NCBI GenBank assembly: GCA_963662465.1 | Contig: OY759599.1 | Span: forward strand, 5,728,001-5,792,000 | Direction of reading: 5' to 3' | DNA: 64,000 bases | DNA from: Desulfatiglandales bacterium | Lineage (GTDB): Bacteria > Desulfobacterota > DSM-4660 > Desulfatiglandales > Desulfatiglandaceae | Part shown: piece after piece, positions 39,001 through 45,000 of the stretch | Position numbering within the stretch: the stretch's first letter is position 1 | How the letters are laid out: each line of letters starts with the position of its first letter | Position numbers: made by a program

Positions 39001-42000
39001 CAGTTGGCTTTCCTTCCAGATCAAACTGTTGCAACACTGAATCTTCGGGAACCGTACCGATAAAATCCAATTTGTATTGGTTAAGGGCCTCATCTAAAGC
39101 CTCTGTTTGTCCCTCCTTGGCACGGTTGACCATGACGACTTTTCGGTTAATATTCAATTTAAGGGCATTGGTTAATTCCACAATACGATTCGCCGCCTGC
39201 AAACCTCGTCTTGTGGCGTCGGATACCACCAGAAGTACATCAATGTTATTGGTGGTAAGCCGGCTGATATGTTCCATGCCCGCTTCATTGTCCACGACCA
39301 GATAATTATAGTTGTCAATCAATTTTTCCAGGTATTGCGTTAAAAGCGAATTGGCCGCGCAGTAGCATCCGGCGCCTTCGGGACGTCCCATGGTAATCAG
39401 GTCAAATCCCTTGGACTCCACAATGGCTTCCTGAAGTTTCATTTCCATGTAGACATCTTTTGTCATGCCCGGCGATACACCTGTTTTCATGTCTTCCCTG
39501 GCATCCCCAAGGGTTTCCCCCGCCTCGAGTCCCAATACTTCATTAAAATTCGCATTGGCGTCGGCATCCACGGCCAAAACGGGTGTTTTTCCTTTCTCCA
39601 CCAGATACTTGATAAGCATACCCGCGGTTGTGGTTTTCCCGGTTCCACCTTTTCCCGCTAAGGCAATCGAATACGTCATACGTTCCTCCCTATTATTAAA
39701 ATAGCAAAATTTAATGGATATCTTTTTCAAAAATGTCAAAAATTCAATGCTCGTAAAAAAGTCTATCTATTACCCCACAACACATGGCTTATTCAACCTT
39801 TTTCCAAAAAATTTTAGAGTTGTTTATTTTATGTCAAACTTTGTCAAAAAATCGGAAAAGATGATGCTAAAGGTTGTTTTCTGAAAGAACCGGGTTATTG
39901 GTTTATAACCAAATTAAGAAAGTATAATTTATAAAATAAGATAGTTATCTTGCTTTTAAACAAATTTTAAATTCTTTATTGTTATGATTAATTTTATATA
40001 TTTAAAAAAATAATAATTTGAAATTTATGGGAACGGTATACCGTACAAATTCAATTTCAGATTTCGATTGCTATCTTTTTTAAAACTCTCTATAATTTAA
40101 TGTTTCTAAAAAAACCTTTTTCCTAACCCACAACTATTTTCCATGATAACAAAAAATGAAATATGGGACCAAATAAAAGAGAATATTAAAGGTGATATTC
40201 CCAAATCCGAGTTCAAAACGTGGCTATCCCAAACATCGTTGCTGGAGATCAGCTCGGAACTAGCAGTTATTGAGGTTCCAAATAAATTTATTGCGGCTTG
40301 GCTTTCCGACAATTACAGTGATCGTATAAGACGATTGCTGCAAGATCACGTCCGTACCCACCCGGCAATCCAATTTTCTTACAAAACCCTCGATAGTAGA
40401 AAAACAGGAAAAAAGAAAAGTGTTAATAAAAGATCAAAAGCGTTTTTTTCGCATGGACTGAATCCATCTCATACCTTCTCTGATTTTGTTAAAGCAGGGT
40501 CCAATGGCCTTGCCTGCTCTTCAGCACTTGATGTTGCGAACAATCCATTTTGCAAGTATAATCCCCTTTACATTTTCAGCAAACAGAGTTTGGGGAAAAC
40601 TCATCTTTTGCATGCTATCGGCAATGAGGTCATAAAAAGAGACCGCGAAAAAAAAGCCATTTATTTGTCAGCTGAATGTGTTGTTTCTCAATTTGAAAAA
40701 CTTGTTCCCGACATATTTGAATGTTTTTGGGAAGAAGAAAAACCTCCTCAAGTTTTATTGCTCGACGACATTCAAATTATTACAAATCATCGAGAATCAC
40801 AAAAAGAATTGCTTTCTCTTTGTAGTTTTTTCCTGGAATCAAACCGCCAGTTGGTAGTTGCCGCTACCGCTCCTCCAAATCAGATTAAAAACCTTTTGCC
40901 ACAACTGCGCTCACGCCTTGAATGGGGTTTAATTACAGAAATAAAAGTACCCAGTCAAAAAACAAAAATGAAAGTGATCAACCAAAAAGCAAAATATGAA
41001 GGTATTCAGTTTCCAGAGGACGCACAATTTTTACTGGCAAGTTCAACCAATGATTTTAAAAAACTGGTTAACCAAGTTAAAAAGATCAAAGCTCATACAA
41101 ACCTTTACGGAACCAAAACAAATGTTTTCACCGTTCAATCCGTTCTTGAAAATAAACCGCATTTTCATATCAGACCTGAGCGTATTCAAGAAATTACGGC
41201 TAAATATTTTCAAATTTCAATATCAGATCTTTTAAGCCGAAAAAAAGAACGAAAAATTTCCTATCCCAGGCAGGTAGCCATCTACCTTACCAGAAAATAC
41301 ACGGATATGTCTTTAAAGGAAATTGGAAGCGCTTTCGGTAATAAACATCATTCATCAATAATATATTCAATCAACAATATCGAAAAAAGTATAAAATCAA
41401 AAATAGAGATTATAAACGATATAAATAAATTAAAAGCGTTTCTTTCAAATAGCTCAGTTTTGTAAAATTGAAAAAGCTTTTAATTTTATGTCAGACTTTG
41501 TTTGAAAGAAGAAAAAACGACCTCAAAAGCTACTTTATTGAAAGGAAATACCTTATTCGTTGTTAACGAATTCATAAAATAAAAACAAAAAAATCAAATG
41601 GTTTTTCTATTTTTTAACAAACTTTCAACCCTGTTATTATTGTGATTAATTTTATATATCTAAAAAAACAATAAAATCACCAACGGAGGAAATAATGGAG
41701 ATAAAAATTGATCGGAATGAACTCCTCAAATCCGTTTCAAAAGTTCAAAGCATTATTGAAAAAAAAAGCAATATGCCTGTTTTATCAACGATACTGTTTA
41801 CAGCCGCCGGCACAACCGTGCAGCTTAGCGCAACGGATTTGGAACTCGGGTTTCAGGAAACGGTCAATGCCGAGGTGATTAAGGAAGGCAGCATAACCCT
41901 GTCCGGGCGAAAAATATTTGAAATTCTCAAAGAAACAAAATCACCCAAATTCCATATTGAAGAAAAAGAAAACAACTGGATCTTTATTTCTGATGGCGTC

Positions 42001-45000
42001 GCCAGATTTAACCTGGCATCCATTTCACCCGATGAATTTCCGGCATTTGTTGAGCCTGAGGGTGTTTCTATGATTGCCATAAACGGCGATGCTCTGGCAG
42101 ATATGATCAATAAAACCATTTATGCGGTAACCGCGGAAGAAGCAGGATTTAAGCTTTGCGGAGTACTCACTGAAAAGGTTGTGGTTGGTGAGCATATTTT
42201 TTTTCGAATGGTGGCAACCGATGGTCACAGACTCTCTCTTATCGATAAATCAGTTGCCGATATTGAATCTTTGGAACTTACGAGCGGGGTGATGATCCCT
42301 AAAAAAGGTATGAGCGAACTTAACAGAATGGCTGCTGATGGCGGAACCATTGAAATCGGCTTCAAAGAAAAAAACTGTGTGGCCAAAAAAGAAAATGCGG
42401 TACTGGTGATGCGTCTTCTGGAAGCCAATTTTCCGGATTATCAAGCGGTAATGCATCAAAGTGAAAAAAATCCCTTAATTATAAAGAAAGCCTCGCTTCT
42501 GGAAGCCATGAGAAAAATGCTTATCTTGAGCAACGAGCGGTACAGGGCTGTGAAAATTACTTTGGAAAACAACATGATGGATCTCGTTTCAACCAACCCG
42601 GATTTAGGCGAGGCCCAGGAAAGCATTGAAATTAAATATAATGGCGAGCGTGTTGAAGCCGGTTTTAATCCAAAATATTTTATTGATACGCTTCAATCCA
42701 TGCAGAGTGAAACCATTTATCTTGATTTTACCGATAGTTCGAAGCCTTTTGTACTTACGGGTGATTCAGATGAAGGTTTTATCGGCCTTATTATGCCGAT
42801 GAGGGTTTAGAATGACACAAGAAAAAACGTATGAAGCATCGGATATTAAAGTTTTAGAAGGCTTATCAGCGGTTAGAAAAAGGCCGTCCATGTACATCGG
42901 AAATACTGGTTTTGAAGGGCTTCATCACCTGGTTTACGAAGTGGTGGATAACAGTATCGATGAAGCGCTGGCGGGATATTGCGATCAAATTGATATCAAA
43001 TTGATGACGGATAACAGCGTGGTTATTCGGGATAACGGACGCGGCATTCCCGTGGGAATGCATGAATCCGCGAACATGCCGGCTTTGGAAGTGGTTATGA
43101 CCAAACTTCATGCAGGCGGTAAATTTGACAATAAAACATACCGAGTATCCGGAGGACTCCACGGCGTGGGTGTCTCCGTGGTGAATGCACTTTCCGCCTA
43201 TCTTGAGGTTGAAGTATACCGAAACCAAAAAATTTATTATCAGCGCTATGAAAGAGGAGAAGCCAAAACGGTTCTTGAAATCAAAGGCGAAACCGCGAGA
43301 ACCGGAACCAAAATTCACTTCATTCCGGATCCGGTTATTTTTGAAACCATTATTTTTGATTTTGAAACGCTGGCCAAAAGGATGCGTGAGCTTTCTTTTT
43401 TAACGAAAGGCCTGCGGATTAAAATTCTGGATGAACGGACTGGTAAAAAGAAAGAATTTTTTTATGAAGGAGGGATTGAGTCTTTTGTAGAATATCTTAA
43501 TCGAAACAAGGAACTGCTCCATCCAAAACCCATCGCCATTTCGGGAGAGAAAAACGGCGTACTGGTTGATATCGCTCTTCAGTATAACAATTCTTATAAA
43601 GAAAATCTCTTTACCTTTGCCAACAACATCAATACAAAAGAAGGGGGAAGCCATCTGGCGGGTTTTAAATCAGCTCTGACCCGAAGTATCAATTCATATC
43701 TCAATAATTCGCCAAAAGCAAAAAACGTAAAAGAAAAGCTTTCCGGTGATGATGTGAGGGAAGGTTTAACAGCGGTTATCAGCGTAAAGCTGCCTGAACC
43801 GCAATTTGAAGGCCAAACAAAAACCAAGCTGGGAAACAGCGATATTAAAGGTTTGGTTGAAAATCTGGTCAATGAAGGTCTGGGAACTTTTTTTGAAGAA
43901 AATCCGACGACCGTTAATGCTATTCTGGGTAAGGTTATTGATGCAGCCAGGGCCAGAGAGGCGGCCAGGAAAGCCAAAGAGCTGGCTCGAAGAAAAGGCG
44001 TTTTATTTGATCACTCACTGCCGGGAAAATTAGCGGATTGCCAGGAAAAGGATCCTGCTCGAAGCGAAATTTTTATTGTGGAGGGAGAATCGGCGGGGGG
44101 GTCGGCAAAACAGGGGCGAGACCGAAGAACCCAGGCCATTTTACCACTTAGGGGAAAAATTCTGAATGTGGAGAAAGCACGATTCGATAAGATGATTTCG
44201 AGCGAAGAAATTCGGATTTTGATTGCCGCCCTGGGAACGGGAATTGGAGAAAAAGACTACACGCTGGATTCTATACGATATCACAAGATTATTATCATGA
44301 CCGATGCAGATGTGGATGGCGCTCATATCCGTACCCTTCTTTTGACATTTTTTTTCAGGCAAATGCCTGATATGATCGAAAAAGGATACCTTTATGTGGC
44401 ACAGCCGCCGCTTTATCGCGTGTCGCAGAAAAAGAAAGATTTGTTTATCAAGGATGAAGCTAAATTTAACGATTATATTCTGGATCGGATTTCAGAGAAT
44501 GAAAGGGTCGTTTTTGAAGACGGCACGGAAATATCCGGGAAACGACTCATAAAACTCCTGAACAGGCTGGTAAATTTTTTTGAAAATATGGAGAAACTTT
44601 CCCGGAAAGGTTTCAGCTATAAATTTTTAGAATCTCTTATTTCAAATGGTTTGATTGCCACAAAACAATTTAAGGATAAGGTTTTTATCGACCATCTTAA
44701 AAATCAACTTTGTGCGGATGGATTTGAACTTAGTGATGTCAGAACAACTGAAGATGACGGATATTACCAATTTTCCGTTATTGAAACACAAAATGGCGGC
44801 CATACCTTTAGCGTTGACTGGGAATTTATATCTTCACCTGAGCTTCGTGAGCTGATATCGCTTTCCAGTGATTTTCGTGAACTCAAACTTAACGGTTTCA
44901 GGGTTAACGGAAACGAAGAAAAGCAGAAAATAGAAGACCCTCGGCTTTTTCTCAATGATGTTATGGAAAAAGGCAAAAGAGGGTTGGCTATTCAGCGGTA

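Follow-up and report, generated by a model that had tools for sequence, protein, structure and literature searches.

Which of its two DnaA proteins opens the replication origin of a Desulfatiglandales bacterium (GCA_963662465.1, here G000), and what has become of the copy that is encoded at the origin itself? The window is the whole analysed stretch of 64,000 nucleotides, positions 5,728,001-5,792,000 of contig OY759599.1. The AT-rich, dnaN-linked DnaA of G000 is called T1 and its second DnaA T2. Families f1 to f6 belong to the order Desulfatiglandales, f1 being that of G000; f19 and f73 lie outside the order. The features of the locus, in window coordinates except for T2, are as follows.

34997-37048: CODH, part of the CODH/ACS cluster divergent from T1
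37113-38657: CdhD, part of the same divergent cluster
38933-39739, minus strand: CooC-like ParA/MinD-family ATPase (Pfam CbiA/AAA_31/ParA), opening the CODH/ACS cluster
39740-40142, no strand: AT-rich spacer 5' of T1, 403 bp, 24.6% G+C
40143-41465, plus strand: T1 dnaA, 440 aa, an ORF with Pfam DnaA_N, Bac_DnaA and Bac_DnaA_C
41466-41694, no strand: T1-dnaN spacer, 229 bp, 23.6% G+C, candidate oriC
41695-42810, plus strand: dnaN, beta clamp (Pfam, TIGR00663)
42812-45199, plus strand: gyrB
45287-47710, plus strand: gyrA
G000:C1:4827608-4828954, minus strand: T2 dnaA, 448 aa, with DnaA_N, Bac_DnaA and Bac_DnaA_C all present

Both dnaA genes were intact and full-length, with the domain layout of the DnaA class, and both passed the TIGR00362 cut-off of 343.9 bits (T1 350.9, T2 405.6). 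Both aligned end to end with canonical DnaA (B. subtilis, PDB 8BTG) in the same four-domain layout, T1 with E 2e-67 and T2 with E 8e-77. The genome-wide survey's note had described two full-length genes only 25% identical, and BLASTP returned that value across 430 aa (E 1e-50), a likeness below that of either protein to generic DnaAs. Its further points on T1 were also borne out: the gene has 35.4% G+C against 49.5% for the genome, its Walker A reads SKQSLGKT, and it heads the order dnaA-dnaN-gyrB-gyrA at the minimum of the cumulative GC skew (5,769,817, or 41,817 in the window; maximum at 1,786,371). When RNA evidence was sought, one metatranscriptome contig matched, within dnaN only.

The neighbourhood of T1 is old. 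In nine of nine f1/f4 genomes examined outside the genus of G000, CODH, CdhD and the CooC-like gene run away from T1, dnaN, gyrB and gyrA (with gpsA and birA beyond), and T2 faces the cluster from the far side. In at least 31 further f1/f4 genomes the distance between T1 and T2 is 7-39 kb, with T2 convergent on the cluster, and the large separation is limited to the genus of G000 (0.94 Mb in G000, 0.72 Mb in G133). The earlier description of T2 as a conserved orphan 0.94 Mb away is right on the distance in G000 but does not hold as a general status, T2 being near the cluster outside the genus. The CooC-like gene forms the left anchor of the dnaA slot and adjoins the dnaN-linked dnaA in f1, f4 and f19. 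In f19, another family of Desulfobacterota, the slot after divergent CODH, CdhD and CooC-like genes and before dnaN holds a canonical DnaA (490-505 bits, motifs GGAGLGKT and LLLDDIQ), and a second, T2-like copy sits elsewhere. Since the same flanks surround a canonical dnaA, T1 is the positional orthologue of the ordinary DnaA, and the view of the origin copy as a novel, divergent paralogue is not upheld. A dnaN-linked DnaA together with a T2-like copy was also found in G340 (f73); the two-DnaA state, being present in f19 and f73, is thus older than the order. It is likely that the order descends, together with several further families of Desulfobacterota, from an ancestor with two DnaAs, an ordinary copy at the origin plus T2. 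The ordinary copy would have occupied the slot between the CooC-like gene and dnaN, with T1 as its descendant, and T2 would represent a second ancestral lineage that later became the sole DnaA of many families.

If the dnaA of another phylum had displaced the resident gene at its own locus in the common ancestor of f1 and f4, this would account for the low G+C of T1 and for its long branch. Apart from its base composition, the T1 clade (SH-aLRT 96-100) is long-branched and unplaced in the trees, where it does not join the canonical f19 copies, and T1 matches DnaAs of many phyla (26-35% identity) with scores much like its score against T2. A foreign gene is nevertheless hard to reconcile with flanks exactly like those of the canonical f19 copy. 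Among 597 confirmed matches of the genome collection no closer relative was found except L122, a MAG locus of the T1 type in which the synteny is the same. GC3 shifts gradually around the origin, from 0.59 in CODH, 0.46 in CdhD and 0.49 in the CooC-like gene to 0.31 in T1, and back through 0.41 in both dnaN and gyrB to 0.49 in gyrA and 0.56 in gpsA, which describes a local trough and not an island. Deep-branching T1 members in f4 moreover keep more canonical motifs ([AG]DR, FGDRDHST). We regard such a replacement as very unlikely. Within the 403-bp spacer upstream of T1, about 200 bp (about 39823-40016, with a repeat block at 39976-40002) are a diverged copy of T1-dnaN spacer sequence, and positions 40068-40096 look like a promoter. 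Most relatives have a mere 40-55 bp or so upstream of T1, the enlarged form being common to G000 and G134.

With T1 as the query, two or more DnaA matches were obtained in 58 of 104 f1 genomes and 48 of 61 f4 genomes, and just one, weak, in each of the 39 matched genomes of f2, f3, f5 and f6, reproducing the counts given before; in all of those 39 the T2 type is the only DnaA found. The claim that these other families have only the T2 type is thus right, and in four of their genomes (G016, G017, G208 and G205) neither dnaN nor gyrB occurs within about 9 kb of that sole DnaA. Outside the order about 30 of 91 sampled families, by hand tally, have no DnaA other than the T2 type. Among f1/f4 assemblies of at most 40 contigs, T2 was present in 16/16 and T1 in 15/16, and in G071 and G110, which belong to two genera, T1 is cleanly deleted between the CooC-like gene and dnaN. 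Five MAGs (94-99% complete) showed T1 and not T2; in these the contig stops at most about 0.7 kb past the last cluster gene (gpsA, birA; in G069 inside gyrA), before the expected place of T2. Across families the states grade from a canonical copy with T2, through an eroded T1 with T2, to T2 alone. The T2 clade received an SH-aLRT of 100 on a stem of about 1.0-1.1 changes per site.

Residues were counted in alignments of 34 T1 and 40 T2 sequences. Neither type carries the Walker A pattern G..G.GKT. The lysine and the Thr/Ser are kept in 34/34 and 40/40, and the first P-loop glycine remains in only one T1 and in no T2, being Ser in 33/34 T1 and Ser or Ala in all T2. In G000 the T2 motif reads SNTGLGKT. 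The hhhhDD form of Walker B is retained by T1 (DD in 30/34, DN in 4/34) and lost by T2, with Glu at the first position in 37/40 and at the second in 35/40 (LLLEEIH in G000). The Box VII arginine finger is present in every sequence of both sets. The sensor-II arginine is found in 40/40 T2; in T1 it is Lys in 30/34 and Arg in 1/34. Sensor-I Asp is lost in both types, the P-loop Gly and this Asp being kept in f19 and generic DnaAs. Domain IV motifs of T1 are near-canonical (YPRQ.A.YL, FGN[KR][DH]HS), and the T2 signature has a one-residue deletion and Ser in place of Asp. Compared with canonical DnaA, T1 thus differs in its S..S.GKT P-loop, sensor-II Lys and lost trio-capture residues, and T2 in its [SA]NTGLGK[TS] P-loop, Walker B EE, sensor-I loss and altered domain IV signature. 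T2 had been presented as the conserved copy, which these motifs contradict; on the alignments and trees, its reading as an old derived DnaA clade with its own non-canonical ATPase motifs is strongly supported.

The trio-capture residues are an initiator-specific motif, given for B. subtilis in PMC10721633 as N187, I190, I193, R202 and E228. At these five sites the 40 T2 sequences have N in 40, I in 36 or V in 4, L in 35 or I in 5, K in 40 and E in 40, and the 34 T1 sequences have N in two, I in none, a variable third position, W in 18 or R in 11, and E in 29. G000 itself reads N, I, L, K, E in T2 and S, E, V, W, E in T1. Three of the five are altered non-conservatively in its T1, and the segment is unconstrained throughout the T1 clade.

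T1 could still be the working initiator of G000, with T2 a regulator or transcription factor that took over only where T1 was lost. Its place beside dnaN at the skew minimum, its canonical Walker B, its domain IV, better than that of T2, and its dN/dS far under 1 all fit such a role. In f19, which has canonical boxes, sampled skew places the origin at the canonical dnaN-linked copy despite the T2-like gene. The T2 lineage, whose members there coexist with a canonical DnaA, therefore had a different role at one time. A pair of canonical-type boxes 5' of the T2 promoter could be regulatory. The changed and unconstrained trio-capture segment argues against T1 as initiator, as do the sensor-II replacement in 30/34, the T1-dnaN spacers, where 31 of the 34 distinct Desulfatiglandales sequences scanned gave no match to canonical boxes at up to one mismatch, and the fact that the gene lost in close relatives is T1 and not T2. 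We consider this quite unlikely.

The same residues allow an obligate partnership in genomes that have both genes. T1 and T2 would join in mixed oligomers there, with T1 anchored to double-stranded boxes of the origin and T2 engaging single-stranded DNA, both being needed. What each has retained is complementary (near-canonical domain IV motifs in T1, trio-capture residues in T2), the arginine finger is invariant in both, and the ATP pocket of T1 is altered at the same places as that of T2, namely the first P-loop Gly and sensor-I Asp. However, G071 and G110 lack T1 and still keep the origin module described below, and whole families subsist on T2 alone, so that we think an obligate partnership unlikely, if worth keeping in mind.

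T1 is under purifying selection, with dN/dS of 0.11-0.22 (T2 0.07-0.13). The idea that it is a functionless relic heading for loss could draw on its repeated losses, on amino-acid changes about twice those of T2, and on a 1-bp insertion in a T-run of the G134 gene. That indel lies in a homopolymer, in an assembly of long-read type, and could be erroneous. In addition to the dN/dS values, T1 ORFs of at least 400 aa were found in 30/30 distinct loci from 30 genomes, and the Lys, arginine-finger and domain IV columns are invariant. A relic is therefore extremely unlikely. T1 may be more than an accessory, since its Walker B and domain IV are more canonical than those of T2 and purifying selection has kept it in well over 100 genomes.

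A candidate for the site of opening was found in the T1-dnaN spacer.

41611-41660, plus strand: putative box-plus-trio (BUS-like) module, from the consensus of 43 distinct dnaN-upstream sequences

Its parts are, in order, a degenerate 9-mer box, another box and, after a short gap, trinucleotide repeats centred on T that lead into AT-rich DNA; the consensus boxes are T.TT..ACA and AAT..ACA. It occurs also in genomes without T1 (G071, G110, G023 and G016). The module was scored by the Pelliciari 2021 criteria for a BUS-type oriC core (PMC8287927). The G000 box, TTTTTAACA, has three mismatches to TTATCCACA, one more than the two allowed; G023 and G016 (TTTTCAACA) and G340 (TTATTTACA) have two each. 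A 12-bp spacer, within the allowed 0-16 bp, is followed by at least three central-A trinucleotides on the bound strand, a requirement which is permissive in AT-rich DNA; after the spacer the consensus top strand reads TTA TTA TTA T.A TTA, corresponding to trios of AAT type on the bound strand. The module also lies within the predicted origin, close to the skew minimum. It resembles the BUS of B. subtilis, laid out between dnaA and dnaN (PMC8287927, Table S1), in its position 5' of dnaN, its 9-mer box with an abutting 8-mer box, a gap of about 4 bp, central-A trios and the common 12-bp spacer; in contrast to that BUS its boxes are degenerate and its trios mostly AAT and not GAT. Because of the poor box matches and an overlap with a TTGACA-like hexamer, the module may simply be, or double as, the dnaN promoter; a promoter scan gave a result not above chance. 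In the complete, T2-only genome G220 the skew switches from minus to plus at dnaN, although T2 is encoded 720 kb from there, and TGTGGATAA, TTATCCACC and AAATCCACC stand immediately 5' of dnaN.

We lean, by a little, towards T2 as the protein that opens the G000 origin in trans, with T1 as a dispensable accessory. Gene content, synteny, residue patterns, selection, deletions and skew were observed directly; who binds what, and every activity of T1 and T2, we infer. T2, encoded 0.94 Mb away, would assemble on the module 5' of dnaN and open the duplex. T1 would still be able to bind nucleotide and double-stranded DNA and to donate an arginine finger, and, being without the residues that grip single-stranded trios, would persist in a dispensable, accessory capacity at the origin or close to it, where it might help or brake while bound to a box, or else regulate the dnaN operon or T2. 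As a DnaA paralogue that no longer initiates and acts on the initiator, the proposed T1, which adjoins dnaN, resembles Hda/HdaA. An Hda-type regulator proper, that is, AAA+ only plus an N-terminal clamp-binding motif, was rejected for T1, which has domains I and IV; it scored 111 bits against TIGR03420, below the cut-off of 194.8, and reading of its sequence revealed no motif of the clamp-binding type. Two full-length dnaA genes on one chromosome are described for Chlamydia trachomatis (DnaA1 and DnaA2) in bioRxiv 10.1101/2020.10.19.346502; G000 is likened to it by that description, the lineages being unrelated. Unlike C. trachomatis, Desulfatiglandales and relatives offer a graded series across families.

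In a wider and more tentative reading, which we think improbable on present evidence, these genomes show initiator succession midway. A second DnaA lineage would have originated, or come in, before the divergence of these families, existed at first alongside the ordinary initiator, as it does in f19, and then taken over origin opening. In Desulfatiglandales the ordinary copy would have been re-tooled to serve mixed T1/T2 filaments as the subunit that binds boxes and donates an arginine finger, its nucleotide pocket converging on that of T2 (P-loop Gly to Ser, sensor-I Asp lost), and elsewhere it would simply have been deleted. If this is true, paralogues can replace bacterial replication initiators without the origin moving, and a hetero-oligomeric DnaA machine exists.

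Two full-length DnaA proteins are encoded in the genome under study (G000), a single contig of 8.16 Mb with 49.5% G+C. We refer to the AT-rich, dnaN-linked copy (g05276) as T1 and to the second copy (g04444) as T2.

Genes of the T1 locus (window positions) and the second dnaA of G000
38933-39739, divergent from T1: CooC-like ATPase gene (ParA/MinD family), the left synteny anchor of the dnaA slot; CdhD and then CODH lie beyond
40143-41465, + strand: T1 dnaA, 440 aa, with DnaA_N, Bac_DnaA and Bac_DnaA_C
41695-42810, + strand: dnaN
42812-45199, + strand: gyrB
45287-47710, + strand: gyrA
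G000:C1:4,827,608-4,828,954, - strand: T2 dnaA, 448 aa, flanked by glycosyltransferase and radical-SAM genes

The two proteins are 25% identical. On the TIGR00362 model (cut-off 343.9) T1 scored narrowly above the threshold, with 350.9 bits, and T2 scored 405.6 bits. The cumulative GC skew had its minimum at 5,769,817 (window 41,817), approximately 120 bp inside dnaN, and its maximum at 1,786,371, so that the two replichores measure 4.18 and 3.98 Mb. The two public data sets that match the stretch best, X1 and X2, probably represent the source sample. T1 is covered without a single difference by short-read contigs from a public run, and a relative, approximately 94% identical, in a marine metagenome carried the T1 gene without any indel. 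In the single RNA run considered, X8, one 246-nt contig fell inside dnaN and T1 was uncovered. The claim of the genome-wide survey's note, that two full-length DnaAs exist and that one is linked to dnaN at the skew minimum, was thus borne out by domains, model scores, skew and public reads. Elsewhere in G000, ORFs of 330-360 aa matched the DnaA model solely over its C-terminal DNA-binding region (positions ~330-437) at G000:C1:5086091-5086408, 5088663-5088983 and 7014098-7014358. About 30 near-identical ORFs of 240-266 aa, found genome-wide, gave weak matches to the DnaA AAA+ core and resemble IS21-type IstB helper ATPases, which would point to extensive multiplication of IS elements in the 8.2-Mb genome.

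Counts over 209 genomes of the order Desulfatiglandales agreed with those made in the survey: at least two DnaA matches in 58 of 104 genomes of the own family (f1) and in 48 of 61 of family f4, and one weak match in all 39 matched genomes of families f2, f3, f5 and f6. T2 proteins were 82-96% identical inside the genus and 46-74% over the order, T1 proteins 65-72% inside the genus and ~30-53% in f1 and f4; judged by these identities, T2 is by far the better conserved protein. Both genes share one contig, 7-39 kb apart, in at least 31 genomes. Searches of fetched loci by tblastn recovered the same layout in all nine f1/f4 genomes examined outside the genus (G097, G096, G117, G101, G089, G048, G170, G156, G161): CODH, CdhD and the CooC-like gene leftward, T1, dnaN, gyrB and gyrA (then gpsA and birA) rightward, and T2 facing them. 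Relocation of T2 to a setting of TPR, glycosyltransferase, radical-SAM and two-component genes was seen solely in G000 and in G133 of the same genus. The 0.94 Mb between T1 and T2, reported as a feature of the pair, is therefore real in G000 but not general; it reflects a genus-level rearrangement. The CODH/ACS cluster (CODH, CdhD, CooC-like; window 34997-39739) adjoins the origin divergently and is kept across at least three families (f1, f4 and f19, the last outside the order). A pattern scan of the genome collection with the T1 alignment gave at least 597 confirmed DnaA loci from many phyla, 80 of which were kept; one locus among the matches listed, L122, was of T1 type. L122, labelled uncultured Desulfobacteraceae, has the order CooC-like, T1, dnaN, gyrB, and its tree neighbour is an f1 genome. 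The label is probably loose naming, rather than a sign of T1 beyond the order.

T1 has been cleanly lost twice. In G071 (99% complete) dnaN adjoins the CooC-like gene across a 563-bp spacer without T1, and T2 is kept at the end of the cluster; in G110 the ~780 bp between the CooC-like gene and dnaN hold no dnaA. Among 16 f1/f4 assemblies with at most 40 contigs, T2 was present in all and T1 in 15, one of these T1 genes carrying a 1-bp homopolymer insertion. T1 is thus dispensable in evolution, and T2 suffices alone in many lineages. Set beside the lineages with T2 alone, obligate mixed filaments of T1 and T2 seem unlikely. Several further candidates for loss were rejected. In five T1-only MAGs the contigs stop within ~0.7 kb of the last cluster gene seen, short of the expected place of T2; the T2-only MAGs G135, G066 and G098 lack dnaN as well, i.e., the origin region is missing; and the contig of G075 stops at dnaN.

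The slot of T1 is occupied by another DnaA outside the order. In f19 a canonical DnaA (490-505 bits on TIGR00362; motifs GGAGLGKT, LLLDDIQ and FGGKDHSTV) lies between the same CooC-like/CdhD/CODH genes and dnaN, and a T2-like gene is situated away from it. The f19 dnaA-dnaN spacer holds two boxes with at most one mismatch to the consensus, and several further CCAC-type motifs by eye. In the complete f19 genome G221 (21 samples of 20 kb) the skew turned from negative to positive at ~0.25-0.5 Mb, a weak signal; the canonical gene at 273 kb is near this turn and the T2-like gene at 0.35 kb away from it. Both DnaA types occurred in seven of ten sampled f19 genomes and also in f73, where G340 has a very divergent dnaN-linked DnaA and a T2-like one. 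At least three DnaA-family genes, one canonical and dnaN-linked and two T2-like, were noticed in G294, G353 and G382 of f19. Families f46, f39, f42 and others gave two DnaA matches of other kinds.

Trees (IQ-TREE, LG+C20 PMSF, quick search; 95 and 71 rows) placed T2 and the T2-like DnaAs of other Desulfobacterota families in one clade with SH-aLRT 100 and a stem of ~1.0-1.1 changes per site. The T1 clade was supported at 96-100. The remaining bacteria, among them Syntrophia and the canonical copies of f19, fell in a third, weakly supported group. T1 and T2 did not come out as sister clades, which leaves a recent duplication within the order unsupported. As T1 itself was unplaced, the argument for its vertical descent draws on synteny and on the more canonical motifs of deep-branching members of f4. 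Taken together, these are two old DnaA lineages, with T1 in the ancestral origin slot. The reach of T2 was surveyed by searching one set of 301 genomes of the phylum with T2 and with an f19 canonical protein, families being classed by hand from best E-values and called T2-type-only when the T2 query gave 1e-87 or lower and did far better than the canonical query. By this rule the T2 type was the sole DnaA in ~30 of 91 families outside the order, the remaining ones having mostly the canonical type alone. No dnaN was found in the 1.5-kb flanks of the 22 closest T2-like loci.

Pelliciari et al. (2023, PMC10721633) described five residues of B. subtilis DnaA, N187, I190, I193, R202 and E228, through which the protein captures the bases of the DnaA-trio; substituting alanine for any one of the five led to a severe growth defect. 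Numbering was checked via HMMER alignments to 8BTG.

Residues at functional sites in 40 T2 and 34 T1 sequences (B. subtilis numbering)
N187: T2, N in 40; T1, N in 2
I190: T2, I in 36 and V in 4; T1, I in 0 (S15, L6, E5)
I193: T2, L in 35 and I in 5; T1, variable
R202: T2, K in 40; T1, W in 18 and R in 11
E228: T2, E in 40; T1, E in 29
Walker A Lys: all T2; all T1
Arginine finger: all T2; all T1
Walker B: T2, EE; T1, DD in 30/34
Sensor-II: T2, Arg in 40/40; T1, Lys in 30/34

The predicted single-strand capture residues are retained in T2 and gone from T1; in G000, T1 has S, E, V, W and E at these five sites. The whole segment from Walker A to Walker B is conserved in T2 and unconstrained in T1. 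The first P-loop Gly and the sensor-I Asp are gone from both, and are present in f19 and generic DnaAs. The domain IV motifs of T1 are near those of B. subtilis; T2 has YPRN.Y.YLCR and NRSHSTV, with a one-residue deletion. Inside the genus dN/dS (NG86) was 0.11-0.22 for T1 versus 0.07-0.13 for T2 (0.220 and 0.128 in the least saturated pair), and T1 is therefore a working gene tolerating approximately twice the amino-acid changes of T2. That T1 is still the initiator in G000 would suit a working gene at the skew minimum; with its altered capture sites and its losses in relatives, we hold this to be improbable. GC3 along the locus was 0.59 in CODH, 0.46 in CdhD, 0.49 in the CooC-like gene, 0.31 in T1, 0.41 in dnaN, 0.41 in gyrB, 0.49 in gyrA and 0.56 in gpsA; the low G+C at T1 is a gradual AT trough centred on the origin, and no island.

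Clusters of canonical boxes (TTATCCACA, TTWTCCACA, TTWTNCACA) were not enriched at T1 or T2 in a genome-wide scan of G000, as the survey's note had stated, and the densest 500 bp of the whole genome held three canonical-type boxes. In contrast to B. subtilis, the boxes upstream of dnaN are degenerate, with three mismatches in G000 and two in G023, G016 and G340. A common core, T.TT..ACA AAT..ACA ...C TTATTATTAT.ATTAT.TTT ATATAT, was found 55-100 nt ahead of the start codon in 43 distinct dnaN-upstream sequences, and lies at window 41611-41660 in G000. In order, orientation, spacer and position this box-plus-trio module is like the B. subtilis dnaA-dnaN spacer unwinding module, which comprises, according to Table S1 in Pelliciari et al. 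(2021, PMC8287927), a 9-mer box, an 8-mer box abutting it, a gap of 4 bp and trinucleotide repeats (spacer 12). The module persists in G071 and G110, which lack T1, and in T2-only f2 genomes, and a similar one lies ahead of dnaN in the T2-only G303; its place beside dnaN does not depend on which dnaA genes a genome has. In the complete T2-only genome G220, TGTGGATAA, TTATCCACC and AAATCCACC stand immediately upstream of dnaN, and the sampled skew changes from -0.027 at 700-720 kb to +0.034 at 722-742 kb, exactly at dnaN, 720 kb from the T2 gene. A second sign change in G220:C1 (plus to minus; samples at the record start and 2.68 Mb) was observed at the T2 gene, which is at the record start; with an origin at dnaN, this would imply very unequal replichores of 0.72 and 2.05 Mb. 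The skew of the T2-only f2 genome G016 (20 samples of 20 kb) was noisy, with no callable origin.

With a TTGACA-like hexamer overlapping it, the module may double as the dnaN promoter. Window 39600-41800 held six promoter-like sites versus 8.3 expected, and no terminators were found in it. The spacer upstream of T1 is ~400 bp long only in G000 and G134 (~50 bp in other genus members); within it, window 39823-40016 is a diverged copy (~74% identity) of the T1-dnaN spacer 41478-41670; two trio/AT-rich blocks therefore flank T1 in these genomes. One contig (depth ~6) of X4, a 2012 marine metagenome with a ~94% identical relative, lacks 171 bp of the T1-dnaN spacer (window 41479-41649), boxes included, and covers the upstream duplicate. 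Ahead of T2, two canonical-type boxes forming an inverted pair, TGTGGAAAG ... TTTTCCACA, were seen ~270 bp from the start (G000:C1:4829150-4829230; L009 ~12150-12230), as was a TTGACA-type promoter-like site at ~-85. Many relatives, including T2-only f2 genomes, have a comparable pair or single box there. The extended form of the box recurs at G000:C1:7118160-7118400, outside the window, in a tandem array of five ~45-bp units, each with a DnaA-box-like TTTT(T/C)TTCCACAA followed by CCCAAAA-type repeats; this array could be a DnaA-titrating site.

We infer that T2 would open the origin in trans, with T1 acting as an accessory. Chlamydia likewise has two DnaAs, DnaA1 and DnaA2 (bioRxiv 10.1101/2020.10.19.346502). 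A full-text literature search, with most matches judged by abstract, found no work on two DnaA lineages in Desulfobacterota. DnaA is usually treated as a single, universal and vertically inherited initiator, and its gene is taken as an origin marker. The genomes presented here depart from this in three respects. Firstly, in a large share of one phylum the DnaA in use belongs to a derived lineage unlinked from dnaN and the origin. Secondly, both lineages are still found together in some families. Thirdly, the origin-linked dnaA erodes and disappears and the origin module remains in place. Origin predictors anchored on dnaA would be misled in such genomes. The families form a natural series for separable DnaA functions, i.e., double-strand binding, single-strand capture and the ATP switch, and supply defined proteins and a 50-bp DNA scaffold with which unwinding could be assayed in vitro.
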